From Halobacteriovoraceae bacterium (GTDB lineage Bacteria > Bdellovibrionota > Bacteriovoracia > Bacteriovoracales > Bacteriovoracaceae), in the NCBI GenBank assembly GCA_963719505.1, contig CAVRCF010000002.1, positions 192,001 to 256,000 of the forward strand: DNA of 64,000 nt, in the 5' to 3' direction. Shown here piece by piece: positions 4,428 through 37,806 of the stretch (position 1 is its first letter; every line of letters begins with the position of its first letter). The notes beneath the pieces are model-generated. The model was not told where the DNA came from. It did no database searches and saw nothing but the letters and a program-made list of their open reading frames with translations. The translations under genes and the position numbers were made by a program.

Positions 4428-5288
4428 ATGTATAAGATTTTAACCATTATCATTTTATTTCAATCATCAATATTATTGGCTCATGAGGCAAGCTGTAAAC
4501 TTCCGAAAGATGAAATTTTAAAAATTGGGTGTTCTACAAAATGTAAATATTTCTATAAAAAAGCTCTAAAACGTTTTGCTCGTAAAAAAGGATATCGATT
4601 AGAAGTTGTTGATATGTATAAAGCAGGTTTATCAAAAAACTTACAGCAACTCGATGGTATTGTCATTCCAGGGGGGGCAGATATAAACCCAGACCTTTAT
4701 AAGTATAAAGTTGAAGATGATCTCAAGGCAAGAATCGAAGAGTTAGACGGTTTCGTTGATTATAGTTTAGAAGGAGAAAGAAGAGATCCTTTTGAATCTA
4801 AAATTTTGAAAAATTACTTCAAAGACGATGATAATAAAACTCTACCACTTCTTGGTATTTGTCGAGGAATGCAAATGCTTGCTGTATCTCAAGGTATTCC
4901 ACTATATGTAGATATTAAGACAGAACTGGGCATTAAGAATAGAAGGTACTTATTTGATAGAGTTTATATTGAGGATAAAGATAGTCTTTTAAAATCAATT
5001 CTACGCTTCAAAAGCTTTCTTGGTTACAAGTATCACCATCAGGGTGTTAGAGTTGACTATTTTAATAGATATAAATCTGAACGATGGCCTGATATTGATA
5101 TAACATCTTATTCCAATAATAATACAATTGCTGAGTCATTAGAGTTTAAAGATAGACCGATTCTTGGGACTCAGTTTCATCCAGAAATAGATTTTTGGTC
5201 TGAAAGAAAGCGAATTTTTAGTTGGTTGTTGAATGAGTCTTGTGAAAATAAGAATAAAAAAATAGCTAGAAATATGTCGAGAAAATAA
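4428..5288 (+). CDS. Peptidase C26 / gamma-glutamyl hydrolase family (class I glutamine amidotransferase fold), with signal peptide
   Basis: IPGGADINP, LGICRGMQ, HHQG and QFHPE motifs. Confidence 0.88.
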   Translation: MYKILTIIILFQSSILLAHEASCKLPKDEILKIGCSTKCKYFYKKALKRFARKKGYRLEVVDMYKAGLSKNLQQLDGIVIPGGADINPDLYKYKVEDDLKARIEELDGFVDYSLEGERRDPFESKILKNYFKDDDNKTLPLLGICRGMQMLAVSQGIPLYVDIKTELGIKNRRYLFDRVYIEDKDSLLKSILRFKSFLGYKYHHQGVRVDYFNRYKSERWPDIDITSYSNNNTIAESLEFKDRPILGTQFHPEIDFWSERKRIFSWLLNESCENKNKKIARNMSRK

Positions 5289-5527
5289 AGATTATAATAA
5301 ATAAATTAAACTTGTTTGTTTTCTAAGTGGACAGAGGAAGATAAAAATCTTGGAATTTACTAAAACTAAAATCTAATATCATCTACATATAGTGACTTGA
5401 AGCAAGTTTTTGATGTCTCGGAATTATTGGCATCATCGAATTAAACATTTAACCCAAATAGGTGTTATTTAAGATAATCACGTATAGAGTGTAAAATATT
5501 TATACACTTTATATAAAAATTTTATCT

Positions 5528-5568
5528 ATTACTCTCAAGTATTGCTTTAAAAGCAAATATAGAGTAAT
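5528..5568. promoter_or_regulatory. Nested inverted repeat upstream of the czc-like operon, candidate operator
   Basis: ATTACTCT (5528-5535) / AGAGTAAT (5561-5568) flank TTGCTTT-A-AAAGCAA (5542-5556). Confidence 0.4.
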
Positions 5569-5578
5569 TTAATTGAAT

Positions 5579-5902
5579 ATGAAAACTTTATTCACTTTTT
5601 TACTTATATTTACGATCTTCAATGATTTTACATCCGCTTCATTTACTGAAGTGAGTGTAAGTCATTTAGAGTCACAAGTGAGTTGTGAAGAATCAGATTT
5701 TCATTCTTCTGAAAATAATCACGAAGACCACGATCATAAAGAACATAATTGCCACTCTGGACACTCACACACTGTGATTATAGTGTCAGAATCTTTTGAT
5801 CTAAAACCATCGTTATCAGAATTATATTTAGAATACCCACTCTATCAGGCTGGTAATCTACTTACCTTTATATCTAACATTGTTCGTCCTCCGATTGCTT
5901 AA
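5579..5902 (+). CDS. His-rich secreted small protein ending RPPIA; candidate regulatory leader (CzcI/DUF2946-like position)
   Basis: Signal peptide, HEDHDHKEHNCHSGHSH tract, C-terminal VRPPIA; first gene of the RND operon. Confidence 0.75.
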   Translation: MKTLFTFLLIFTIFNDFTSASFTEVSVSHLESQVSCEESDFHSSENNHEDHDHKEHNCHSGHSHTVIIVSESFDLKPSLSELYLEYPLYQAGNLLTFISNIVRPPIA

Positions 5903-5946
5903 TTAAACCCAGTTTTACGTTTAATTAATTGATTAAGGATAAATTT

Positions 5947-7172
5947 ATGTATGCACGTATTGTGTTAGTATTAGTACTTTCGAGTAGTACCTTACTTTCT
6001 GCTGAAAAATGTAACATCGAAAATATTAAAGACTTCTATGATAGAGTTAAAACTAGAGGACCTCTCTTAAATGAAGCAATTAAGAAGAAAGGAAGAAGTG
6101 TCTTCTAGTGTAGATGTTGCGAGTCAAAGGCCAAATCCAGAACTTGATCTAGAGTATCTTAAAAGGCGATGAGTTTGGATTAGATGTTAACACTGTCTCT
6201 TTGACTGCTAAGCATGTCATTGAATTTGGTTCAAAAAGAGATAAAAGAATCTCCAAAGCTAAAAACTACACTCAAGCTTAGAAATGCACAGATTGAAATG
6301 TCCCTTTTTAATTCTAACTTAAATGCCTCTATAGATTATCAGAGAGTTGCTCAGCTAAACGTAACAATTGCATCTGTAAAAGAAGCTATTCAGACATTTG
6401 ATAAAATCATTCGAAAGTTATCATCACGAAAAAGATTAAACCCCGAAGAAACAGTCTCGCTCTCAACTCTTCGCTTAGCTTCAAATGATTATAAAGCTCA
6501 GCTAAATGATTTAGAAAACGAAAAGACCTTACTCGTTGGTAAAATAAACTTTTTGTCAAGTTGTTCTAAAGTCAACCCTAAGTATTACTACTTAAAATTT
6601 AATAAGATTGAACTCAACTCAGTTGAGCACCAAGAAATGCGGATTATTGAATTTAGAGGATTTAAAAGTTGACTTAGAATTGGGAGAGCTAGATGTTCAA
6701 AGATCACTAGGGTATTCAAATATTTCTGTTGGACCAACAGTTCAATATCAAGGTCAGGGAAATGATGAATTTATCTCTGCGGGTGTTGCACTAACTTTTG
6801 ATTTACCAATATTTCAAACAAATGATGGTGGAAAACTTAAATGCTTTAAAAAAGTTATCTGCTCAAAAATTAGAATCTGAAAATGAAAAGAGGATGTTAA
6901 GAATTGAGAAGTTGAACCTAATAGAGAAATTCAAGAGATCTTTAAATACATTATCAAGGATGCCTAAGCTTGATGAAATAGAGTCTGAGCATAGAAAAGT
7001 TGAAAAACTCTTTTCGAGAGGTGTTGTATCAATCTCTATGACTATAGAGTCGCATCGGCAACAAATAGAATTTTTAAAATCACGTTTTGAAACAGAAAAT
7101 GATGTTTTAAGCACATACGGAAAAATAATATTAATAGATGGAAATATATCAGCTTTTGAAGAGCTATTATAA
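5947..7172 (+). CDS. TolC/CzcC-like outer-membrane efflux protein, split by several frameshifts
   Basis: Starts MYARIVLVLVLSSSTLLSA; RPNPELDL motif; ORF fragments 6214-6672, 6608-6880 (GVALTFDLPIFQTNDG) and 6798-7172 join into one protein. Confidence 0.75.
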
Positions 7173-7184
7173 TTAGGAGTTTTT

Positions 7185-7826
7185 ATGAAATTATTAGCAT
7201 TACTTACACTTACCATTTCTCTTTTCTCATGCAGTAAAAATGGAGATGGTCGAATTGCAGAGCAAGAAGATATCAGAGCTAGAGAGCAAGTCGAAGCCCA
7301 GAATGAGAACCAAGAGAATTGGTCGAGAAAAATGGAGAAAGACCTCAATGAAAGAAAGCATTTTATTAAGGCCATTGAAGGAGTATTTTCTGGGGAGCTA
7401 ACTGTAGAAAATATTGATTTCGATATTAAAGCAGAAATAGCTTCAAGTATTCCAATTGTTTTTTCTGATAGATCTCGAACATTAGATGAAATTAATTATG
7501 AACTTGAGAATTTGGCATTAAACTTACATATCAAGCTTGAAAACCCTAGAGTTCCTAATAGTGCAGTAAGTTGTACTATTGAAGGCTACAAACCAGATGT
7601 AGAAAAAGGTTTAATAAAAATCATTTCAGAGTCTTGTCGAAATATATTTAAACTATTTTTATCTGATGACTTAGCAAACACAGAGCCTGTTGTTGTCAGT
7701 AATAGAGCTACTGAGCTTGCAAGAAGTGCTAGCCAAAATGAAATCACTCAAATTGATATTTTAAGTGGCTCATTTGAATCAAGCGTCAGTACTACTGAAT
7801 ACCAATTTAAGTTACAAAGGAATTAG
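7185..7826 (+). CDS. Hypothetical lipoprotein
   Basis: Lipobox LFSC; AGGAG RBS; within the operon. Confidence 0.75.
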   Translation: MKLLALLTLTISLFSCSKNGDGRIAEQEDIRAREQVEAQNENQENWSRKMEKDLNERKHFIKAIEGVFSGELTVENIDFDIKAEIASSIPIVFSDRSRTLDEINYELENLALNLHIKLENPRVPNSAVSCTIEGYKPDVEKGLIKIISESCRNIFKLFLSDDLANTEPVVVSNRATELARSASQNEITQIDILSGSFESSVSTTEYQFKLQRN

Positions 7827-7828
7827 AA

Positions 7829-9082
7829 ATGAAAATATTATCAATAATATCATTTATCTTTATTATTTCCTTCGCTCAAGCTGAGGAAAAGACTGTTACT
7901 TTGGAAGACGTAGCATCAGCGGTAAAAAAGTCTAATTTTACTGTAGTTGAAAATGCAGAAAGAGTTTATCAAGCTAGAGAGACTATCGCTTTTAGTAAAA
8001 GAAACCTTCTACCTCGATTAAACTTTTGGAACATTTTAAAAGTCGCTATCGATCCACTATCGGCTATTGATATAGTTCAGGATATAGCTCCATTTTTAGT
8101 TCCTAATAACTGGTTCAGAGTTTCACAAAACAAGCTATTTTATCTTGCAAAAAAGGAACAGTACAGAGCTCTATGGGCCAATGAGGTTATGACGGCTAAA
8201 CTTCTTTATGTAAATACATTAAGAGATATGGATTTCATGAAACTGCTCAAAACTCAAAAAGAACAAATTGATGAGCTTGTAGAGATTGTTAAAACAAGAG
8301 CTGTTTTTGGAGATGTACCTGCGCAAGTATTGAATTTTCTCAAAATTAGAAAGATGGAAGTTGAAGAGGATATTAGGTCTTTGGACACCATTATCTTTGC
8401 TGAGACTAAAGCTATCTCTTTGATGATTGGAGTTCCACAGGAAATAGAATTGATTTTAAATAATATACAGCTTCCTAGAGTTGAAGAATTAGATGAGATC
8501 AGCTTCGATACATTCATTTTTAGAGCACTTGATAATGCACCTGAGCTTAATCAATATAAATACATCAAAGAATCTCTTCGATTCATTAGAAAAGAAGCAT
8601 ATTTTTCTTTTATGGGGTCATCAACAACGGCAAGAGCAGCTGGAGGAGGAGTATTTAATAATATTCCAATTCAAGATGGCTTTGGTTTTGGACTTGGAAG
8701 TACTATAAGGATTGCAAAATCTGAATCTCGTATATTAGATATTAATGCTAAAGCGACTAAAGAGGTTATCAAGAAGAATTTGTATAATTTAGTCTATAAT
8801 TTCAATTCTTATATTCAAAACATCGAAAATCAAAATGAGCGCTTTACTTTGGCAGAGAACAATTATGAAACTCTAAGGACTCAACTTGTTCTCGGTATGA
8901 ATCTTGATCCAATACAAATGCTAACTACAATCGACAATCTTTTTGATGCTTCTTTATCAAGTGTTAATTATAAGTATGAAGTTGTGAATACTATTGAAAA
9001 ATTAAAAAGATCAATTTTTAATGGTGACTATTCCAAAAAAGAGGGAATGTTAGAGTCTGTGATTTTAGGAGAAGTTAAATGA
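7829..9082 (+). CDS. TolC-family outer-membrane efflux protein (second copy in the operon)
   Basis: Signal peptide, TLEDVASAV...LLPRLN, ALDNAPEL, helical OEP-like repeats; 417 aa. Confidence 0.7.
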   Translation: MKILSIISFIFIISFAQAEEKTVTLEDVASAVKKSNFTVVENAERVYQARETIAFSKRNLLPRLNFWNILKVAIDPLSAIDIVQDIAPFLVPNNWFRVSQNKLFYLAKKEQYRALWANEVMTAKLLYVNTLRDMDFMKLLKTQKEQIDELVEIVKTRAVFGDVPAQVLNFLKIRKMEVEEDIRSLDTIIFAETKAISLMIGVPQEIELILNNIQLPRVEELDEISFDTFIFRALDNAPELNQYKYIKESLRFIRKEAYFSFMGSSTTARAAGGGVFNNIPIQDGFGFGLGSTIRIAKSESRILDINAKATKEVIKKNLYNLVYNFNSYIQNIENQNERFTLAENNYETLRTQLVLGMNLDPIQMLTTIDNLFDASLSSVNYKYEVVNTIEKLKRSIFNGDYSKKEGMLESVILGEVK

Positions 9083-9552
9083 AGTATATATTATTATTAG
9101 TATTTGTCTTAGGGTTCAGTTCTTGTCGATATCAGACAACATTTTCTAATCTACAAGATTTAAAAAAATCTAAAGAGAAGGTTGAGCTAATCTCTAGTCA
9201 AGATCTAAATACAGAAAACCAAGAGATATTGAGAAATTATTTCTCTCAAATTAAAAGTATTACCTATGAATATTTAAATGATTCTAAAATGCAACAATAC
9301 ACTCATCGAAAATTCGCAAGATACTTTCAAGAGTCCCTTTGTAATGAAATTCTTCTCGATATAAAAACACTTAACGAGATAAACTCTAAATGTAATGTGA
9401 ATAGCTTCTACATTTGTTCTGAAGAGGTAAGGTCTTATGTTTCAATCTTAAAAAAGGCCAAAACACTTCTGAGTGAGTATGAAACAGAGAGAGTTGAAGC
9501 AAGTAAAAGCTGTAAAGATAAACTCATTGGTTTAGGAGTTATTAATGAATAA
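9079..9552 (+). CDS. Hypothetical Cys-containing lipoprotein
   Basis: Lipobox FSSC; overlaps both neighbouring genes. Confidence 0.7.
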   Translation: MKYILLLVFVLGFSSCRYQTTFSNLQDLKKSKEKVELISSQDLNTENQEILRNYFSQIKSITYEYLNDSKMQQYTHRKFARYFQESLCNEILLDIKTLNEINSKCNVNSFYICSEEVRSYVSILKKAKTLLSEYETERVEASKSCKDKLIGLGVINE

Positions 9553-10182: not shown

Positions 10183-13100
10183 ATGATAAATAAAATTATA
10201 CAGTTCTCAGTTAATAGTCGAATGTTCATTTTTATGGCTACGCTTGTTTTGCTTATCTTTGGTTATCGATCTTTTCAAACTTTATCTATAGATGCTGTTC
10301 CAGATATAACCAACACTCAGGTTCAAATCAATACTCCAGTAAAAGGACTTGTCCCTGAAGAAATAGAAAGAATGGTTACATTTCCACTTGAGTATTCAAT
10401 GAACGGTATTCCTGGAGTTGAAACTATCCGCTCAATTTCAAGATTTGGAATTTCACAAGTTACAATCATATTTAAAGAAGATGTTAATATACTAACAGCG
10501 AGACAATTAGTTAGTGAAAAACTACAAAACGTTAATTTACCTGAGGGAGTTGTCCCTGAGATGGGACCAATTAGTACTGGACTTGGAGAAATCTTTCATT
10601 ATTCAGTAACAGCTCGAAATGTAGAAACAGATTCTCAAAAGCGTCTAGTTCAACTTATGGAACTTAGGTCATTGCAAGATTGGTTTATTAAGCCTCGGTT
10701 ATTAACAGTTAAAGGTGTTACTGAAGTTAATACAATCGGTGGATATGAGAAGCAATTTTTTATTCAGCCAAATATTAAAAAGATGACTAAATTTGGTCTT
10801 CATTTTGATGATATTGAACAAGCTATTGAACAAACAAATATTAATGTCGGTGGTGGATATATCCAGCAAACTGGAGAGCAGCTTCTTGTTAGAGGTGTTG
10901 GTCTATTACAAAAATTTGAAGATATTGAAAAAGTCGTTGTTAAAAGACTTTCAGATTATCAAGTTATAAAAATTAAAGATATTGCACAAGTTAAATACGA
11001 TAAGCAAATTCGAACAGGAGCTGCTACTGTTAACGGTGAAGAAAGTATTATCGGTACCGCCTTTATGCTTCTTGGTGAAAACAGTAGAACTGTCTCTGAT
11101 GATGTAAACACTAAGCTGATGCAAATTCAAAAAGACTTACCGTCTTGGGTTAAGCTTGATGTCCTCTATAATAGATCTGATATGGTTGATGCGACACTAG
11201 GAACAGTTCAACATAATCTTTTTATGGGGGCTGGATTAGTTATACTTTTTCTTCTTTTATTGGTTGGTAATCTTAGAGCTGCAATAATCACATCAATCAT
11301 TATTCCTATTTCGTTGTTGATAACTTTTATTCTTATGAAATGGCAAAATGTTTCTGGAAACCTTATGAGTTTAGGAGCTTTAGACTTTGGTATTATTGTT
11401 GATGGTGCTGTTATTGTTATTGAGAACTGTGTTCATAAATTACAAAAAGAAGGTAAGAGACTTGGTAGAGAACTTACTCGTCAGGAAGTGAAAAATTATG
11501 TCACTGAAGCCGCTATTGAAATTAGATCAGCAGCGGGATTTGGTGAGTTAATTGTTATCATCGTTTTTGTTCCTCTTTTTGCACTGACGGGGGTTGAAGG
11601 TAAAATGTTTGGACCTATGGCACAAACTTTCATTATGGCTCTATGTTCAGCATTAGTACTATCGTTTACTCTAGTACCTGCTTTAGCGGCAACATTTCTA
11701 AGCGGGAAAACGAAAGATAAGAAACCATATCTTATGAATCTAGCTGAACAAGCATTTAGTCCTGTTCTTAACAAAGCTTTAGCATTCAAAAAAATTGTTC
11801 TAGGAATTGGGGTTGCTTCAATTCTTGGAGGTGTATTTCTTTTTTCTCAAATGGGATCAGAGTTTATTCCGCAGTTAGATGAAGGTGACTTTGCACTTCA
11901 ATTTATAAGGCCTGCTAATATCAGTACAGAGAACTCCGTTAAATTACAAATGCTTTCAGAGAAAGTTGTAAGTGAATTTCCGCAAGTAAAGAATGTATTT
12001 GCTAGAACTGGAGCAGCTGAAGTCGCAACAGATCCAATGGGAGTGAACATCTCTGATTCTTACGTAATGCTTCAGAAGCGTGATGACTGGCCTGATGATG
12101 ATAATATTCAAACAAAACAAGATTTGATTAAAGCTATTAAAGAAAAAATAGAACTTTACGTTCCAGCACAGGTTCTTATGGTCTCTCAACCAGTTGAGCT
12201 TCGGTTTAACGAGCTTCTTGAAGGAACTAGAGCAGATGTTTCTGCTAAAGTATTTGGAGATGATCTAGATAAAATTATTGGCTATTCTAAGCAGGTTGCT
12301 CAAATTGTAGGGGAAATTGAGGGAGCTGGCGAAGTTGAATCTGAATCTAAGGGGAAATCTCCAATGATTCAATATAATCCTAAGATTGAAGAGTTAGCTC
12401 AATTAGGGGTTACTGCTAGACCAGTTTTAGATGCGATCAGTACTGCTATTGGTGGTAAAGAAATAGGTCATGTCTACGATGGAGTGAAAAAATTTCCAAT
12501 TGTTACTAGACTATCCGAAGAAGAGAGAAAAGATGTATTTACGATTAGCCAACTTCCTGTTGGTATCTCTGAAGGATATACTGTTCCAATTGAACAAGTT
12601 GCAGATATTAACTTTGTAGAAACATTTACGGCTGTTGCTAGAGAAAATTCGCAAAGAAGAGTCGCTGTTCTTATTAACCCAGAAACTAGAGATATAGAGA
12701 CATTTGTTAACACTGCTAAAAAGCTTGTTGATGAAAAAATTGACCTTCCTGAGGGGTATTATGTTGAGTGGGGTGGAAGCTTTAAGAATCTTCAAAGTGC
12801 TAAAGAGCGATTAGCCATTTTGGTTCCTCTTGCAATGCTTATTATTATTGGAATGCTTTATGCTGCTTTTAAAAACTTTGCTCAAGTTATATTGATTTTT
12901 GCATGTGCTCCTATGGCTCTTATCGGAGGGGTAATATCTTTAAATTTATTGGGACTACCATTTAGTATCTCTGCTGGAGTAGGTTTTATTGCTTTATCTG
13001 GAATTAGTATTTTGAATGGAGTCGTACTAGTGACCTATTTTAATCGTTTGATAGCTGATGGAAAAAGCCCTGACGATGTCGTTAGAGAAGGGGCAATGTC

Positions 13101-13323
13101 TAGGCTAAGACCAGTTTTAATGACTGCCTTAACGGATATTTTTGGATTTCTTCCAATGATGTTTTCATCAGGATTGGGAGCAGAGGTTCAGAAGCCTTTA
13201 GCAACAGTTGTCGTTGGAGGTATTTTTACCGCTACGATCTTAACTCTAATAGTGATTCCATCTCTTTACAGATTGTTTATTAAACATATGCAACCATCTT
13301 TAGAGTTAAAGAAAAGTTTATAA
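10183..13323 (+). CDS. czcA: CzcA/CusA-family heavy-metal RND permease (divalent-cation type)
   Basis: 1046 aa; IDAVPDITN, LGALDFGIIVDGAVIVIEN, RLRPVLMTAL. Confidence 0.93.
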   Translation: MINKIIQFSVNSRMFIFMATLVLLIFGYRSFQTLSIDAVPDITNTQVQINTPVKGLVPEEIERMVTFPLEYSMNGIPGVETIRSISRFGISQVTIIFKEDVNILTARQLVSEKLQNVNLPEGVVPEMGPISTGLGEIFHYSVTARNVETDSQKRLVQLMELRSLQDWFIKPRLLTVKGVTEVNTIGGYEKQFFIQPNIKKMTKFGLHFDDIEQAIEQTNINVGGGYIQQTGEQLLVRGVGLLQKFEDIEKVVVKRLSDYQVIKIKDIAQVKYDKQIRTGAATVNGEESIIGTAFMLLGENSRTVSDDVNTKLMQIQKDLPSWVKLDVLYNRSDMVDATLGTVQHNLFMGAGLVILFLLLLVGNLRAAIITSIIIPISLLITFILMKWQNVSGNLMSLGALDFGIIVDGAVIVIENCVHKLQKEGKRLGRELTRQEVKNYVTEAAIEIRSAAGFGELIVIIVFVPLFALTGVEGKMFGPMAQTFIMALCSALVLSFTLVPALAATFLSGKTKDKKPYLMNLAEQAFSPVLNKALAFKKIVLGIGVASILGGVFLFSQMGSEFIPQLDEGDFALQFIRPANISTENSVKLQMLSEKVVSEFPQVKNVFARTGAAEVATDPMGVNISDSYVMLQKRDDWPDDDNIQTKQDLIKAIKEKIELYVPAQVLMVSQPVELRFNELLEGTRADVSAKVFGDDLDKIIGYSKQVAQIVGEIEGAGEVESESKGKSPMIQYNPKIEELAQLGVTARPVLDAISTAIGGKEIGHVYDGVKKFPIVTRLSEEERKDVFTISQLPVGISEGYTVPIEQVADINFVETFTAVARENSQRRVAVLINPETRDIETFVNTAKKLVDEKIDLPEGYYVEWGGSFKNLQSAKERLAILVPLAMLIIIGMLYAAFKNFAQVILIFACAPMALIGGVISLNLLGLPFSISAGVGFIALSGISILNGVVLVTYFNRLIADGKSPDDVVREGAMSRLRPVLMTALTDIFGFLPMMFSSGLGAEVQKPLATVVVGGIFTATILTLIVIPSLYRLFIKHMQPSLELKKSL

Positions 13324-13357: not shown

Positions 13358-13687
13358 ATGAAGCTATTGTTAATCAGTATTTTAAGTATGTTTTTGTTAT
13401 CATCGTGTGCCCATCATCATAAAGATGTAGAGCACCATCATCACAAATCATGTGATGCGAATTGTAAGATTCAACATGAAAAAGGTGAGATGTTTGAAAA
13501 GCATTGTGCTCAATCTGTTGCGGAAGGGGATCTACATGTAAAGGGGAGTGATGAGTACAAAATCAGCCATGGCGATGAAATCTACTACTTTTCTACAGAG
13601 AAAAAATTGAAAGAATTTAAAAAACACTTAACTAAAAATGCCAAGAACGCTAGACAAAATTGGGATGCAGGGTCATCTAGAAGGTAA
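13358..13687 (+). CDS. His-rich YHS-like domain lipoprotein
   Basis: Lipobox LSSC, HHH tracts, HGDEIYYFST; paralogue of 26064..26390. Confidence 0.7.
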   Translation: MKLLLISILSMFLLSSCAHHHKDVEHHHHKSCDANCKIQHEKGEMFEKHCAQSVAEGDLHVKGSDEYKISHGDEIYYFSTEKKLKEFKKHLTKNAKNARQNWDAGSSRR

Positions 13688-13689
13688 TT

Positions 13690-14559
13690 ATGGGACACGA
13701 CCATTCACATGGACAAGACTCTAAGAATATTTTAGTCGCATTCGCTTTGAATGCGACATTTTCAATCATTGAACTAATTGGTGGGTATCTCACGAATAGT
13801 GTCGCAATCTATTCAGATGCTCTTCATGACTTTGGAGATAGCTTAGCTCTATTATTTTCATACTTCGCTGAGAAATTAAGTCATAAAGGTGCTGATGAGA
13901 AGTTTACTTTTGGCTATAGACGTTTTTCTATTTTATCAGCTCTTGTAAACGGTATTATTCTTCTTGGAGGAAGCGTCTTTGTTATTATTGAAGCCGTTAA
14001 AAGAGTAATGAATCCTGAGGTCGTTAAACCAGAGGGCATGCTTTGGCTTGCAATCTTAGGAATTGTCGTAAACTCAGTCGCAGCTTATAGAATGTCTAAG
14101 AATAAAGGTGTTAACCCTAGGATGGTTATGCTCCATTTACTTGAGGATCTGTATGGGTGGGTTGCTGTATTAGCAGTCAGCATCATTTTAATGTATAAAC
14201 CTTGGTATTTCTTAGATTCAGCTCTATCAATCTTAATCTCTTTTGTTATTCTTCGGGGAGTTTATAAGAATTTAAAGAAAGTAGCTCTCATTTTTCTTCA
14301 AAAATTTCCAGAAGAAATTGATTTAGATGATATTAAAGATAAAATTTTAAAATTAAAACCAGTCGAAGATGTTCATGCCATAAAGGGACTATCCTTAGAT
14401 GGTGAAAGCTTTTATTTGAGATGTCATATCAAAGTCGCAAGTAATACTTCAATTAATTTGCTCGACAGTTTAAGAAGTGAAATAAAGGTACTATTAAAGG
14501 AAAAGAATATTTCCTGTTCTACGTTGGAGTTTGAATCATCAAGATGTAATGAAAATTGA
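13690..14559 (+). CDS. czcD: Cation diffusion facilitator (CzcD-like Zn/Co/Cd exporter)
   Basis: MGHDHSH, SDALHDFGD, FTFGYRRFSIL, LHLLED. Confidence 0.88.
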   Translation: MGHDHSHGQDSKNILVAFALNATFSIIELIGGYLTNSVAIYSDALHDFGDSLALLFSYFAEKLSHKGADEKFTFGYRRFSILSALVNGIILLGGSVFVIIEAVKRVMNPEVVKPEGMLWLAILGIVVNSVAAYRMSKNKGVNPRMVMLHLLEDLYGWVAVLAVSIILMYKPWYFLDSALSILISFVILRGVYKNLKKVALIFLQKFPEEIDLDDIKDKILKLKPVEDVHAIKGLSLDGESFYLRCHIKVASNTSINLLDSLRSEIKVLLKEKNISCSTLEFESSRCNEN

Positions 14560-14601: not shown

Positions 14602-14621
14602 TTGTTAGGCATGCTTGACAA
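14602..14621. promoter_or_regulatory. DtxR/MntR-type operator
   Basis: Imperfect palindrome TTGTTAGGCATGCTTGACAA about 50 bp upstream of the DtxR-family gene. Confidence 0.6.
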
Positions 14622-14673
14622 GTTTGTGTCTCTTGTTTTATGTTTGGTTATTCAAACAAATGATAGGGATGCA

Positions 14674-15207
14674 ATGGATTTCCAATTTGAACAATACTGG
14701 AAAGAGTTTAATGATAATGAGTTGTCACACTCTGAAACTCACTATATTTTAGCTTTATACTCTCTACTAAAGACTAAAAAATCCATAAGAGCCGTTGAAC
14801 TTTCAAAAGAATTAGATATTAGTCGGAATGCAGTCTCACTTCAATTAAAAAAACTATCTGAAAAGAACCTAATAAAAGTCTCTGATAATCAAATATCTTT
14901 ACCGGAAAAGACAATTCAATTAATTGAGAAAATAGCGAATAAGCGCCAGACAATGATTGTGTTCTTCTCTGAAGTGCTTGGATTACCCATGTCCATTGCA
15001 GCATCCGATAGTTGTAAGATAGAGCACTTACTATCAGATGAGACGGGAAATTCTTTGCTTAAATTTGTTCAGTTTCTTCGTTCAGACCGTAAAATTGTTT
15101 TAGAATTTCTAAAAGAATTTCAAAAATACTATCTGGATTGTGATCCTGAAATTGGTTGTGGGCTTTGCGAAAATATTCATATAATGGAGAAAAAAAATGA
15201 TAACTAA
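14674..15207 (+). CDS. DtxR/MntR-family metal-dependent repressor
   Basis: SETHYILALY, wHTH, DSCKIEHLLS; likely start is ATG 14674 after AGGGA. Confidence 0.85.
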   Translation: MDFQFEQYWKEFNDNELSHSETHYILALYSLLKTKKSIRAVELSKELDISRNAVSLQLKKLSEKNLIKVSDNQISLPEKTIQLIEKIANKRQTMIVFFSEVLGLPMSIAASDSCKIEHLLSDETGNSLLKFVQFLRSDRKIVLEFLKEFQKYYLDCDPEIGCGLCENIHIMEKKNDN

Positions 15208-34618: not shown

Positions 34619-34984
34619 ATGAAGATTTTGCTATTTATATTTTCTTTTTTAATCATTGTAAGTGTATCAATTCAAAGTCCTCAAGTCTCAGACATGAGTA
34701 TCGTTGATATTCATATAAGTTACATTATGAACAATACTGTAACTCATCATGATAATATCGATGATTCAGTACATACTCATACTCACAAGCACTCGGAAGA
34801 TGGTGAAGAGCACGAACATAATCACGATCACAATAGCACGACCCAACTCAATCTAAAGCTTTTTAGTAAATATTCAATTCTGTTTATCGATTCATTAAAA
34901 GATGAGGGAAGAATAAAATTTCCATTTAAATCGATGACACTTTCCGAATACCAGCTCTCTATCTATCGTCCTCCAATTTCTTAG
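34619..34984 (+). CDS. His-rich secreted small protein ending RPPIS; candidate regulatory leader
   Basis: Signal peptide, HTHTHKHSEDGEEHEHNHDH tract, C-terminal YRPPIS; first gene of the hupE operon. Confidence 0.75.
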   Translation: MKILLFIFSFLIIVSVSIQSPQVSDMSIVDIHISYIMNNTVTHHDNIDDSVHTHTHKHSEDGEEHEHNHDHNSTTQLNLKLFSKYSILFIDSLKDEGRIKFPFKSMTLSEYQLSIYRPPIS

Positions 34985-35023: not shown

Positions 35024-35806
35024 ATGTTTAAACTTTTTATAAGTTTCATTCCACTATTGTGGTCTGTAAACTCATTCGCCCATGGAATTAGTCCAGAAGC
35101 ACGTCAGGCAATGATCGATGGTGGATATCTAAAATATGTAATGCTAGGAGCAGAACATATGATTACTGGATATGACCATTTACTATTTTTATTTGGAGTC
35201 ATTTTCTTTTTAACGAGCTTTAAAAGTATCGTTAAATTTATAAGTATCTTTACACTCGGGCACAGTGTTACTCTTATAGGTGCAACATTTTTAGGAATAA
35301 CAGCAAATTATTGGTTGATAGATGCAGTAATCGCCTTGAGTGTTTGTTATAAAGGATTTGATAACAACAATGGATTCAAAGACTATCTAGGCTTTAAGAA
35401 GGCTCCAAATCTTTTGTGGATGGTTTTTATTTTTGGACTGATTCATGGCTTTGGACTATCGACAAGACTACAACAGTTACCTCTAGGGGATAAGGGACTT
35501 GAGATGCTTGGTCGAATCTTGTCTTTTAATGTTGGTGTAGAGCTTGGCCAAGTTTTCGCACTTTTTATTATGTTACTCATTTTGAACAATATAAGGACTC
35601 TTGGTTTTTTTCAAAGATTCTCCAAAGTGGCTAATCACGGACTGATACTTGCTGGGTTTATGTTGTTACTAATGCAGCTACATGGATATCAACATACATC
35701 CAGTCCTGATGATTTCGGCTTCTCAGAAGATAGTCATTACCATCACCACTTGAAAATGGACGAAACTGAAAAATCTAAACCTGCAACTATTCACGATAAT
35801 CTATAA
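35024..35806 (+). CDS. HupE/UreJ-family Ni/Co transporter
   Basis: GAEHMITGYDHLLFL, FTLGHS, FGLIHGFG, FNVGVELGQ. Confidence 0.88.
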   Translation: MFKLFISFIPLLWSVNSFAHGISPEARQAMIDGGYLKYVMLGAEHMITGYDHLLFLFGVIFFLTSFKSIVKFISIFTLGHSVTLIGATFLGITANYWLIDAVIALSVCYKGFDNNNGFKDYLGFKKAPNLLWMVFIFGLIHGFGLSTRLQQLPLGDKGLEMLGRILSFNVGVELGQVFALFIMLLILNNIRTLGFFQRFSKVANHGLILAGFMLLLMQLHGYQHTSSPDDFGFSEDSHYHHHLKMDETEKSKPATIHDNL

Positions 35807-35815
35807 GGAGAATAA

Positions 35816-36175
35816 ATGAAAATTTTAATAATCTTGTTGAGTATGATACTAAGTACTTTTACATTTGCTGGAATTGGTGGGGGGCACTCTCACGGACATG
35901 GTCACAGTCATGAAAAGAAAGTGGCGGTTAAATTGATTGATGCTAAAAAAGCTGAAAAGTTAGCTAGAAATAAAGTAAGAGTTTTGGCTTTCCAAGAAAA
36001 GATTGATTTAACTTGGAATAGTGCGAAGTTGGCATCAGCAATCATTAAAGAGTTTAAAGGTAAAAAAGAGTGGCTCGTAACTTTTTCTAATGAAAAAGGA
36101 AAAAAAGGTAAAACTCTCTATATCTTTTTAAAGCCTGATGGTGAATTTGTAGCCGCAAACTTTACTGGTAAATAA
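35816..36175 (+). CDS. His-rich secreted protein (DUF6488-like)
   Basis: GGGHSHGHGHSH; C-terminal LYIFL...GEFVAANFTGK. Confidence 0.7.
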   Translation: MKILIILLSMILSTFTFAGIGGGHSHGHGHSHEKKVAVKLIDAKKAEKLARNKVRVLAFQEKIDLTWNSAKLASAIIKEFKGKKEWLVTFSNEKGKKGKTLYIFLKPDGEFVAANFTGK

Positions 36176-36176
36176 T

Positions 36177-36515
36177 ATGTGGTTAACAATAAGTAAGACT
36201 ATTGTTGCTGCAATACTTATTAGTTATGTTTCCTGGCTTTCAGGAAAAAAAACAGGTTTGGCAGGGTTTTTAACAGCCCTGCCTCTTACTACATTACTGG
36301 CATTAGCCTTCTCACACATGGAATGGGGAGATAATAACCAGTCTGTTGAATATGCTAAGAGTGTTTTTGTTGCGATACCAGTATCTTTATTATTTTTCAT
36401 ACCATTTTTATTGGCCGAGAAGCTAAATTTAAGCTTTTGGACTTGCTATGGAAGTGGAGTGGCTCTCTTAGGAGTTGGATACTTTATCCATTCTCAGATC
36501 ACTAAATTTATCTAA
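36177..36515 (+). CDS. Small membrane protein (DUF3147-like)
   Basis: 4 TM helices, AGFLTALPLTTLL. Confidence 0.7.
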   Translation: MWLTISKTIVAAILISYVSWLSGKKTGLAGFLTALPLTTLLALAFSHMEWGDNNQSVEYAKSVFVAIPVSLLFFIPFLLAEKLNLSFWTCYGSGVALLGVGYFIHSQITKFI

Positions 36516-36548
36516 TTCATATTTACTATCCTCGGTTGTTCATATAAT

Positions 36549-36565
36549 ATACTGGGGTATAGTAT
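36549..36565. promoter_or_regulatory. RcnR/DmeR-type operator
   Basis: ATACT-GGGGTAT-AGTAT fits the RcnR TACT-N7(G-rich)-AGTA pattern, just before the regulator RBS. Confidence 0.75.
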
Positions 36566-36576
36566 GTGGAGGTGGA

Positions 36577-36855
36577 ATGGCTCATATTTCTGAAGACAGA
36601 ACAAAGATTAAATCGAGAATAAAAAAAATTAAGGGCCAACTCGAAGCGGTTGAGCGTGCTTTAGATAATGGTAAGGAGTGCTTCACCGTTTTACAGACTC
36701 TTTCTGCTTGTAGAGGTGGGCTTAATGGACTTATGGGGGAATTAATTGAAGGGCATGTTAAAGAACATGTTATGAAAAATCCTACAGCTCCTAAAACACC
36801 ACAGGATAAATCTGCACTAGAGTTAATTAAATTAATGAAAACATATTGGAAGTAA
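36577..36855 (+). CDS. dmeR: RcnR/DmeR-family Ni/Co-sensing repressor
   Basis: True start MAHISED after GGAGG; His3, Cys (KECF) and H-x3-H (GHVKEH) ligand set. Confidence 0.85.
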   Translation: MAHISEDRTKIKSRIKKIKGQLEAVERALDNGKECFTVLQTLSACRGGLNGLMGELIEGHVKEHVMKNPTAPKTPQDKSALELIKLMKTYWK

Positions 36856-36867
36856 GGATAAGCAATT

Positions 36868-37806
36868 ATGTCACATGCAAGCCACGAACATAATCACGAT
36901 TATGTAATTAAAGATAGTAAGATTGGAGCCAACGAGAAAAAAACAATGTTTGTCGTGGGACTAACTTTTGTAACAATGGTAGTTGAAGTTACCTATGGTT
37001 ATATCACAGGATCTATGGCTCTCCTTGCAGATGGCTGGCATATGGCAAGTCACGTTGGTGCACTCGGTATATCATTGATTGCATATAGGCTTGCAAGGTC
37101 CCATAAGCTTAATCAAAAATTCTCTTTTGGAGCAGGTAAGCTAATTCCCCTTGGAGGCTATACAAGTGCTTTGATGCTAGGTATGGTCGCTATTTTTATG
37201 GGTGTAGAGTCAATTGAAAGGTTTCTTAATCCCACCATTATTGATTTTTCTGTCGCCATTTGGGTTTCAGTAGTCGGTTTGATCGTAAATCTTTTAAGCG
37301 CTCTTTTATTAAAAGATTCTCATGATCATCATCACGAGCACGATGATCACCATCATCATCAAAATGAAGGAGAGCATGTACACGATCATAATCATCAAAG
37401 TGCACTTGTTCATGTTATTGCTGATGCGTTTACTTCAGTTCTTGCAATAGTTGCTTTAATTCTTGGAAAATACTTTGGGTGGTACTGGGCAGACCCTATA
37501 ATGGGAATTGTGGGCTCTGTAGTAATATTAAAATGGGCATATGGGCTTTGCAAAGGAACTGTTTGGGAACTACTAGATGGAAATTCTAAGTTGATCAAAA
37601 AAGATGAAATAAAAAAACTTTTTGCTCAAGATAAAAATGTAGAGATAACGGATTTACATATTTGGAGAATTGCACCAAACGCTCATGCATGTGAAGTTAT
37701 GATTTATAATAACGACTTGATAGGGAGCGAATTCTATCGAGATAAAATATTGAAAAATTTTGATATTGAACATTTGATTATTGAAGAGAGATCATGCGTT
37801 CATTAA
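36868..37806 (+). CDS. dmeF: DmeF-type Co/Ni CDF exporter
   Basis: GSMALLADGWHMASH, His-rich loop, HVIADA, DLHIW. Confidence 0.9.
   Translation: MSHASHEHNHDYVIKDSKIGANEKKTMFVVGLTFVTMVVEVTYGYITGSMALLADGWHMASHVGALGISLIAYRLARSHKLNQKFSFGAGKLIPLGGYTSALMLGMVAIFMGVESIERFLNPTIIDFSVAIWVSVVGLIVNLLSALLLKDSHDHHHEHDDHHHHQNEGEHVHDHNHQSALVHVIADAFTSVLAIVALILGKYFGWYWADPIMGIVGSVVILKWAYGLCKGTVWELLDGNSKLIKKDEIKKLFAQDKNVEITDLHIWRIAPNAHACEVMIYNNDLIGSEFYRDKILKNFDIEHLIIEERSCVH

Follow-up and report, generated by a model that had tools for sequence, protein, structure and literature searches.

A candidate metal-sensing arrest leader from a lineage-specific family upstream of a czc-type efflux operon in a Halobacteriovoraceae bacterium

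To our knowledge, metal-sensing arrest leaders have been studied experimentally for copper only, in the cases of CutF and CruR. Here we analyse a stretch of 64,000 nucleotides (nt) from a Halobacteriovoraceae bacterium (GenBank assembly GCA_963719505.1, contig CAVRCF010000002.1, positions 192,001 to 256,000 of the forward strand; hereafter the window), in which a small open reading frame (ORF) encoding a His-rich peptide with a signal-peptide-like start and the ending RPPIA stands directly upstream of a czc-type heavy-metal efflux operon. In our assessment this ORF of 107 amino acids (aa) is probably a cis-acting sensor leader of the CutF type: a ribosome arrested at RPP would hold open a hairpin that otherwise covers the following gene's Shine-Dalgarno (SD) sequence, and a pause prolonged by metal would turn on translation of the efflux gene. 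A model's reading of the bare letters of the window had first proposed such a switch (the original prediction), and we compare that proposal below with homologous loci, with described leaders and with the rival explanations that the locus invites.

Described leaders and the present locus

CutF, encoded in the cutFOG operon of Rhodobacter capsulatus, combines a signal peptide, a metal motif, a C-terminal Pro motif and a stem-loop masking the SD sequence, an arrangement that is experimentally supported (PMC9973294; 10.1101/2025.02.05.636593). As summarized in the parts of PMC9973294 that deal with similar proteins, the CutF-like set comprises 5,334 proteins, with OEP genes as the commonest downstream neighbours, and some of these are not copper-specific. 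Under the rule set of Ozturk et al. 2023, a CutF-like protein has fewer than 150 aa, carries PP among its last 15 residues, starts with a signal peptide and is encoded beside a neighbour on the same strand. The leader agrees in size, Pro motif and neighbour, with 107 aa, a PP at residues 104-105 and a next ATG 44 nt past its stop, and its start is signal-peptide-like to judge from the sequence and from a helix in an AlphaFold2 (AF2) model. The leader family may already be inside the published CutF-like list, with which it is compared here by rule set and main text; that main text (PMC9973294) makes no mention of Bdellovibrio or Bacteriovorax. Like CutF, the leader is small and has a putative Sec-type signal, a Cys/His motif, a C-terminal Pro-Pro, a short intergenic region and an SD-masking stem-loop. 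CutF differs in its CxxxC motif, its GPPPRL tail and its control of a multicopper oxidase, as described in the relevant parts of PMC9973294, whereas the leader has a CHxGHxH head, RPPI followed by one residue and an anti-SD sequence inside the candidate arrest codons; our comparison showed no link between the two at the level of sequence.

The second described case, CruR (Bp2923) of Bordetella pertussis, is the prototype of DUF2946. Like the leader, it is the product of an upstream ORF in which an export signal (in the leader a signal-peptide-like start) and a metal motif are combined with a tail of the Arg-x-Pro-Pro type near the C-terminus. In both families the distance between the two motifs is fixed (within 1-2 residues, in the manner of DUF2946), at 45 residues in DUF2946/CruR (PMC9426467) and at 38 in the leader family. 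The original prediction had placed CutF and CruR side by side as leaders controlling a hairpin over a ribosome-binding site (RBS). This is apt for CutF, which opens an RBS-masking stem-loop, but not for CruR, which by the account of its mechanism in PMC9426467 acts through Rho-dependent termination in an intergenic region of 162 nt and can dispense with its signal peptide. CruR further differs from the leader in its CXXC motif and in a RAPP motif three residues from the end, and in its case copper is proposed to relieve the arrest and the target is an uptake receptor (PMC9426467).

Pfam and NCBIfam scans of the leader gave no model over cut-off. For DUF2946 (PF11162, gathering threshold 23.7 bits) the window's genome (G000) had no match at E<=1, and across 151 genomes of the phylum nothing scored over the cut-off; sub-threshold matches to its hidden Markov model (HMM) were found in 6 of 100 family members (best E 0.0052). 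The leader (P0001) also lacks the CXXC that characterizes DUF2946, and its family ends in RPPI with mostly two residues after PP, not in RAPP three from the end. Membership in DUF2946 was thus rejected on the HMM, on CXXC and on RAPP alike. When the family profile was compared by hhalign with a RAPP/CxxC-type leader of the same phylum, the signal peptide alone aligned (probability 56%), and comparisons with an RPPLS-tailed leader and with a second leader of the window (see below) aligned the last 19-24 residues only. Since hhalign links these leaders via the tail or the signal peptide only, homology to DUF2946 is not demonstrated. DUF6660 (PF20365, gathering threshold 27 bits) had no match over cut-off in 151 genomes of the order, the best member scoring 17.6 bits, and sub-threshold HMM matches occurred in 8 of 100 members, one of them reaching the end of the profile. 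This family from Bacteroidota, of unknown function, was the named cluster nearest to one homologue (P0014) by protein-language-model features (score 0.96), which should be taken as a lead only. A search of the literature on DUF6660, RPPI stalling and stalling leaders of CzcCBA found no description of the leader family.

The tail of the leader invites comparison with the RAPP and RGPP arrest peptides (ApdA, ApdP and the RAGP of SecM), which likewise place Arg and then Pro at the peptidyl-transferase centre (PMC12992588, PMC10951233). According to the relevant part of PMC12992588, the Arg of RAPP peptides is irreplaceable and the change of Ala to Pro in R-A-P is partly permissive; RxPP with Pro as x has been recovered in random-library screens, as cited in the same source. 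Unlike these peptides, the leader would have Ile and not Pro as its A-site residue in the matching register, and its motif is known here from sequence alone, whereas arrest is demonstrated for RAPP-type peptides, which monitor Sec/YidC activity. In its position the leader recalls CzcI of Cupriavidus metallidurans, a small exported protein encoded directly upstream of czcC in czcCBA; the two are compared here by description, and CzcI is characterized in PMC9973294 as lacking a C-terminal Pro motif. Judged by these features, the leader is of a published kind, the metal-sensing arrest leaders of the CutF/CruR type, for which OEP/RND operons are a known target class.

The leader peptide and its family

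The layout given in the original prediction, a signal peptide, a His/Cys tract, a spacer and RPPIA before the stop, agrees with the sequence and its translation (Table 1), and this observation is confirmed. Its spacer of about 35 residues is present as well, but with a length of 38. The N-terminus reads MK, TLFTFLLIFTIF and NDFTSA in translation, the T-S-A being the likely site of signal-peptide cleavage. His and Cys residues stand at positions 29, 36, 42, 48, 51, 53, 56, 58, 59, 62 and 64, and the tail is encoded by CGT (5885), CCT (5888), CCG (5891), ATT (5894), GCT (5897) and TAA (5900), with A107 as the last residue. An AF2 model built on a 100-sequence alignment shows helices only at residues 2-21 (predicted local distance difference test, pLDDT, 93 and 82 in the first two blocks) and 95-99 (five residues), with a predicted TM score (pTM) of 0.23 and a mean pLDDT of 70. 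The predicted lack of a globular fold is supportive rather than decisive for a leader, metals being outside the model. Public contigs from three independent runs are identical to the window over 5614-6068, so that the leader, the hairpin and the start region of the next gene are not an assembly artefact.

With the single protein as query, full-length relatives came up in 7 of 41 related genomes; they include a paralogue elsewhere in the window's own genome. A profile made from an alignment of eight members (A1) reached much further, with 115 clusters at E<=0.001, 55 of which were at E<=1e-10 (counted as representatives at 50% identity); nearly all matched proteins are 100-118 aa long and matched end to end. 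By the same profile search the leader gene occurs in 44 of 151 genomes of the order and in 22 of its 57 genera, and where members carry a name at all, it is solely 'hypothetical protein' of Bacteriovorax sp. or Halobacteriovorax sp. A word-based search with protein P0126 matched solely its own close kin.

The original prediction had proposed an alignment of homologues for conservation of RPP, of spacer length and of the hairpin. For the peptide, the outcome is clear on both counts. [RK]PP is found in the last eight residues of 121 of 124 family proteins, the three exceptions being fragments of 73-92 aa, and RPPI in 109 of the 124; two residues follow PP in 97 of 121. Counted from the last Cys or His of the head up to the Arg of the tail, the spacer measures exactly 38 residues in 80 of the 120 proteins; in 102 it measures 37-40. 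In an alignment of 100 family sequences (A2), P104 and P105 alone are invariant, while C58, H59, R103 and I106 are at least 90% conserved and the mean column identity is 21%. The head of the family is C-H-x-G-H-x-H, frequently extended to HCHCHxGHxH. The conservation in A2 and the spacer counts together indicate that the two motifs and the distance between them are kept and the intervening sequence is not; recurring as they do in homologues, these peptide features are far beyond chance. On these sequence grounds the family is lineage-specific and unannotated, with a tail (RPPI), a head (CHxGHxH) and a fixed spacing of its own.

Codon usage in the tail points in two directions. Among 33 unique loci the second Pro codon varies (CCT 13, CCA 9, CCC 6, CCG 5), and the Ile codons ATT, ATC and ATA appear in roughly background proportions; since these codons vary while the residues stay, selection appears to act on the leader peptide, beyond the RNA. 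CGN codons, in contrast, make up 24 of the 26 cases in which the tail residue is Arg, as against 32% CGN (and 68% AGA/AGG) in neighbouring genes, and CCT encodes the first Pro in 22 of 33 loci, as against 44% in neighbours (binomial p 0.008), both counts being uncorrected for kinship. This bias may be due to pairing with the SD sequence or to a need for a particular tRNA.

Other tails stand before OEP genes in the same phylum (FRPPLS, LKPPLFS, LKPPMFS and KKPPSLS, in loci L040, L045, L034, L038 and L006), and a RAPP/CxxC-type leader (L041), also of the same phylum, lies upstream of a different gene. In their sequences the leader tails are a graded series, not a single motif.

Within the window's genome, RPP at 1-5 residues before the stop is rare: of the 5408 ORFs with 60 aa or more, just 3 have it. 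The three are the leader, its paralogue and the ORF at 34619-34984, and all of them encode His-rich, signal-peptide-bearing peptides upstream of metal-transport genes. The last of these, a second leader in the window, has a His-only tract and precedes by 39 nt the block 35024-37806, whose first gene is HupE_UreJ_2 (161 bits); behind it come DUF6488, a repressor of the metal-sensitive type (Pfam Trns_repr_metal, 67.6 bits) and a cation diffusion facilitator (CDF) gene. Its Arg-Pro-Pro codons also pair with the next SD sequence. Relatives of this second leader are present in 24 of 101 genomes of the family; in all 12 loci compared the peptide closes with RPP[I/M] and a further one or two residues, and in 10 of them the spacer to the next gene is 39-43 nt. 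It resembles the published His-only clusters 14 and 17 of CutF-like proteins, which lie beside HupE/UreJ genes according to the cluster descriptions in PMC9973294. When compared by hhalign with the profile of the CHxGHxH family, it aligns over the last 19 residues only (probability 95%). Because the two leader families align over the tail alone, the RPPI tail is suggested to be a portable module.

The hairpin and the proposed switch

Both stems named in the original prediction (5899-5908 with 5919-5928, and 5898-5906 with 5929-5937) can be found at these positions, and the minimum free energy (MFE) fold joins them into one longer, imperfect hairpin. In this fold 5886-5890 pairs with 5936-5940, so that UCCU, made of the end of the Arg codon and the first Pro codon, meets the AGGA of the SD sequence; 5893-5897 pairs with 5930-5934, and 5899-5908, with the stop codon inside, pairs with 5919-5928, closing a loop of 5909-5918. 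For pairing between the SD region and the 3' end of the leader the probability is 0.74, and the downstream ATG (5947) lies 7 nt past the SD sequence. For the segment from the Arg codon to nine nucleotides past the AUG, the fold has a z of -2.2, equalled by 6 of 200 shuffles.

Across the family, the SD region pairs with the last 18 nt of the leader plus 8 nt after the stop at a probability of at least 0.5 in 16 of 30 unique loci and of 0.2-0.5 in a further 10. As controls we used 67 same-strand intergenic regions of similar length with an SD sequence from the window's genome. Pairing of the initiation region with the upstream ORF's end has a mean probability of 0.43 in the 30 family loci and of 0.17 in the controls (Mann-Whitney 5e-8, uncorrected for kinship). 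An 18-pair hairpin that spans from the Arg codon to the SD sequence is common to eight close loci; 89.6% of its cells are paired, as against 22-54% when the register is slid. Double changes occur at four of its pairs, and the covariation score is 0.163, compared with 0.093 in shuffled alignments, of which 4 in 500 score as high. Covariation also links the wobble position of the second Pro codon to the base 5' of the SD sequence. In more distant loci the SD sequence or the AUG is masked by different sequences from the same last six codons; among the distant subfamilies, for instance, the AUG region is bound by the Ile-Ser-stop codons, or the stop is directly followed by an anti-SD sequence. Family initiation regions also prefer their own leader end over ordinary gene ends (median rank 0.075, with a rank of 0.05 or less in 12 of 30).

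The proposed switch would work as follows. During export of the nascent chain the ribosome would pause at R-P-P, in one of two registers: (i) with Pro104 occupying the P site and Pro105 the A site, as in a classic PP pause tuned by elongation factor P (EF-P), which the window's genome encodes, or (ii) with R-P-P at the end of the peptidyl-tRNA and Ile-tRNA in the A site, which would map one to one onto R-A-P|P of RAPP. The second register would be favoured, since Ile is nearly invariant as an amino acid. A ribosome with the second Pro codon (5891) in its P site should shield about 5879-5906 and with it all of the hairpin's 5' arm, leaving the SD sequence (5935) and the AUG (5947) free for a 30S subunit that could load 56 nt downstream without clash. 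The head would at that moment lie about 40 residues from the peptidyl-transferase centre, at or just past the tunnel exit, and the N-terminal acidic His tract in or beyond the translocon. A divalent metal of the Zn, Co, Cd or Ni type bound to the head would lengthen the pause and so turn on translation of the efflux gene; in the absence of metal the pause would be short, termination would follow and the hairpin would re-form. The pause would set the duration of the open window, because a terminating ribosome opens the hairpin only briefly. That metal turns expression on and not off is inferred from the function of the efflux operon and from CutF; CruR is an existing case of a response of the opposite sign (PMC9426467).

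A number of observations weigh against this proposal and should temper its interpretation. RPP-I is a candidate arrest motif, as against the strong motifs RAPP and RGPP, and PP pauses are normally relieved by EF-P, which this genome encodes. A distance of 38-44 residues from the Cys/His core to the arrest site would put the core at the tunnel exit, not in the periplasm, and in LepB fusions the Pro motif of CutF alone did not cause strong stalling, as reported for those constructs in PMC9973294. With regard to the hairpin, the fold of the window is modest (-13.7 kcal/mol, z -1.70, equalled by 15 of 200 shuffles), and no significant difference separates the family mean z of -1.37 to -1.38 from the -0.94 of the controls (p 0.10). 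Family and controls are also equal in how much of the initiation region is paired overall (0.56 each). In 4 of the 30 loci the SD sequence pairs with the leader end at a probability below 0.2; in two of these (L006 and L026) the MFE fold pairs the AUG, not the SD sequence, with the last codons of the leader. Duplex tests ranked each leader's own initiation region against 1000 others of the genome and found the leader end to pair about equally well with either (median rank 0.25); when arms are exchanged between the loci of the family, the median rank is 0.24, from which we conclude that much of the pairing is the generic complementarity of CCUCC to SD sequences that any Pro-Pro codons would bring. 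Finally, the gene proposed to be regulated is frameshifted in the present assembly (see below). On balance there is moderate evidence that the SD mask is real, built largely from the complementarity of CCU-CCN to the SD sequence and locally fine-tuned. Conservation of the hairpin, the third comparison suggested at the outset, is accordingly moderate: the pairing excess over controls and the common hairpin of the eight close loci speak for it, but much of the complementarity is generic. The reading of the locus as a metal-sensing arrest switch passes the comparative test and is supported to this extent, with arrest and metal response as candidate properties.

We consider it unlikely that the ORF chiefly encodes an accessory protein that binds metal as a stable periplasmic component and, as an analogue of CzcI in position, acts in trans on the pump or on a sensor, with RPPI as a structural or interaction motif and the hairpin as ordinary coupling. 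The leader does occupy the position of CzcI, directly upstream of a czcC-type gene, and CzcI is described in the relevant part of PMC9973294 as a suggested metal-sensing regulator without a Pro motif; the dense His/Cys/acidic tract would also suit such a protein, as would an initiation region that is no more paired than those of the controls. A folded domain would, however, be expected to keep its core residues, whereas AF2 predicts no fold here, and the mature part is poorly conserved outside the two motifs while the distance between them is fixed. The tail is in addition invariant and tied to the stop codon, as the number of residues after PP indicates, and the same tail is found on an otherwise unalignable leader before a different metal gene.

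Quite unlikely, in our view, is a pausing leader in which the sign or the signal differs, either coupling the efflux gene to export or elongation capacity (SecM-like and tuned by EF-P) or having its pause relieved by metal as for CruR. A PP motif together with a signal peptide are ingredients of the SecM/VemP type, but the Cys/His core matches the tail in conservation, and this points towards metal as the signal. Relief of the pause has a precedent in CruR, whose arrest is proposed to be relieved by copper and whose spacing of 45 residues is near the 38-44 seen here (PMC9426467). With an SD-masking hairpin, however, relief by metal would turn efflux off, which makes little physiological sense. 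On the side of this rival stands also the second leader. HupE/UreJ proteins are commonly regarded as nickel/cobalt uptake permeases, and if the gene behind the second leader encodes one, the opposite metal response would fit the same tail at that locus. A CruR-like transcriptional attenuator, in which the paused ribosome blocks Rho and its release leads to Rho termination before the efflux genes, is a demonstrated mechanism for the DUF2946 prototype (PMC9426467) but seems highly improbable at a locus where the intergenic region is 44 nt long (39-60 nt in 29 of 31 loci) as against 162 nt in CruR and is A+T-rich with little C for a Rho utilization (rut) site, where no terminator-like site was found and where the conserved structure masks the SD sequence.

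Returning to the arrest switch as the preferred explanation, we put forward only tentatively, and with some doubt, that R-P-P-I-x-stop is a self-standing, portable arrest module distinct from RAPP. Its RPP would end the peptidyl-tRNA with Ile in the A site, its codons CGN CCU CCN would double as an anti-SD sequence, and in bacteria of the Bacteriovorax group it would have been joined to a CHxGHxH head 38 residues away for czc-type efflux and to a His-only head for HupE/UreJ, both being read at the tunnel exit or the translocon junction. If this were true, it would define a set of purely translational divalent-metal switches that are read away from the open periplasm.

The downstream operon and the meaning of the family

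The genes that follow the leader (Table 1) bear out the heavy-metal czc operon of the original prediction, with a CusA/CzcA-type RND (resistance-nodulation-division) pump and a CDF transporter. Pump, outer-membrane factor and adaptor, as expected for a heavy-metal RND operon of the CusA/CzcA type, lie on the same strand, although the adaptor is atypical. No terminator-like site was found in 5200-8000, and hence none between the leader and the next gene; this and the same-strand gene assignments make the reading as a czc-type operon sound. The pump carries DFG-x3-DGA-x3-IEN in its fourth transmembrane segment, which we take to be the divalent-cation signature (Nies 2003).

Table 1. Features of the leader locus, the downstream operon and the second leader (window positions)
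Feature	Position	Strand	Basis or remark
Leader ORF P0001, 107 aa	5579..5902	+	Intact, 107 codons, TAA stop 5900-5902; sequence and translation
Signal-peptide-like N-terminus, residues 1-21	5579..5641	+	Lys2, hydrophobic core, small T-S-A
Acidic His/Cys tract, residues 42-64	5702..5770	+	Dense His, two Cys
Tract core C58-H59-S-G-H62-S-H64 (CHxGHxH)	5750-5770	+	Closes the tract
Spacer, 38 residues (between H64 and R103)	5771..5884	+	Length fixed, sequence variable
Candidate arrest motif R103-P104-P105-I106	5885..5896	+	Codons CGT CCT CCG ATT
Hairpin 5' arm: Arg/Pro codons, Ile-Ala codons, stop and 6 nt beyond	5886..5908	+	MFE fold
Hairpin 3' arm, including SD AAGGA 5935-5939	5919..5940	+	MFE fold
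Outer-membrane efflux gene (TolC/CzcC-like), five +1 frameshifts	5947..7172	+	Whole-length homology
Lipoprotein-like gene	7185..7826	+	No Pfam family; also after the efflux outer-membrane gene in related loci
Second outer-membrane efflux gene, 417 aa	7829..9082	+	Pfam OEP 26.1 bits (cut-off 22)
Small lipoprotein-like gene	9079-9552	+	Window ORF
His-rich adaptor-like protein, 209 aa	9545..10174	+	TIGR00999 positions 197-270 of 271, E 0.004, far below cut-off
CusA/CzcA-family heavy-metal RND pump	10183..13323	+	TIGR00914 1202.9 bits (cut-off 701); Pfam ACR_tran 897 bits
Small gene	13358-13687	+	Window ORF
CDF (CzcD/ZitB-like) cation efflux transporter	13690..14559	+	Pfam/NCBIfam scan
Second leader ORF, 121 aa	34619-34984	+	Signal-peptide-like start, His-only tract, ends YRPPIS-stop

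The same arrangement recurs in related loci. After duplicates had been dropped (L010, L011, L014 and L019), an ORF of at least 100 aa begins 39-60 nt past the leader stop in 28 of 30 loci, or 29 of 31 with the window included; the exceptions have distances of 67 and 169 nt, and two further loci have no such ORF within 220 nt. When 30 downstream products were compared with Pfam, 22 matched OEP at E<=0.001 (16 of them over the cut-off) and one matched ACR_tran (RND pump). The remaining seven have no Pfam match and are still ORFs of 404-417 aa like the others; the product of L012 aligns by tblastn with the gene at 5947-7172 of the window.

This first gene of the operon, called tolC in the original prediction, is a full-length homologue of efflux outer-membrane proteins, but in the present assembly it is cut by frameshifts. 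Searches by tblastn with three intact homologues covered 5947-7172 in three frames, with five successive +1 shifts at about 6085, in an A-run at 6161-6164, and at about 6276, 6640 and 6839; at least three of them are in A-runs. The pieces are well conserved, with up to 75% identity to another genus. In a comparison covering three of the five sites, the contigs of other public runs have one base fewer at 6085, 6276 and 6836/6839. The frameshifts are thus probably homopolymer insertion errors of the assembly, which consists of 5 contigs and is 83.5% complete by marker genes; decay specific to this strain is an alternative cause but not the simplest reading. Other 'pseudogenes' of this genome merit the same suspicion of assembly error.

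The His-rich protein of 209 aa stands where a CzcB-type adaptor would be expected. Its N-terminal part is long and rich in His and Asp, and its match to the CzcB/NccB model is weak and confined to roughly the last 75 positions; the protein could be an adaptor of unusual shortness or an accessory protein that binds metal. A similar His-rich start is found at the paralogous locus L008. Directly past the CDF gene lies a gene for a DtxR/MntR-like regulator (14602-15207), followed, in the region to 17095, by one for a 632-aa protein with a cytochrome-c-like part and a part of the EfeU/FTR1 iron permease type. Upstream, about 70 nt before the leader start, an inverted repeat at 5488-5508 (6-nt arms, 9-nt spacer) overlaps weak promoter-like hexamers and may be an operator. 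No counterpart of it, or other shared operator, was evident upstream of 13 other leader loci, and promoter-like sites within 5200-8000 were no more frequent than in shuffles.

The leader family offers a compact and very regular test case for metal-sensing arrest leaders, one that is probably specific for divalent cations and is set apart by its RPPI tail, its distance of 38 residues from sensor to arrest site and an RBS mask made of the arrest codons themselves. It could be used to ask how a metal bound to the nascent chain alters events at the peptidyl-transferase centre, and where on the path from tunnel to translocon the metal is read. For annotation, such small ORFs are likely regulatory parts of czc-type and HupE/UreJ operons. 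Found without annotation in marine predatory bacteria, a protein family of 115 clusters at 50% identity thereby gains a candidate function.

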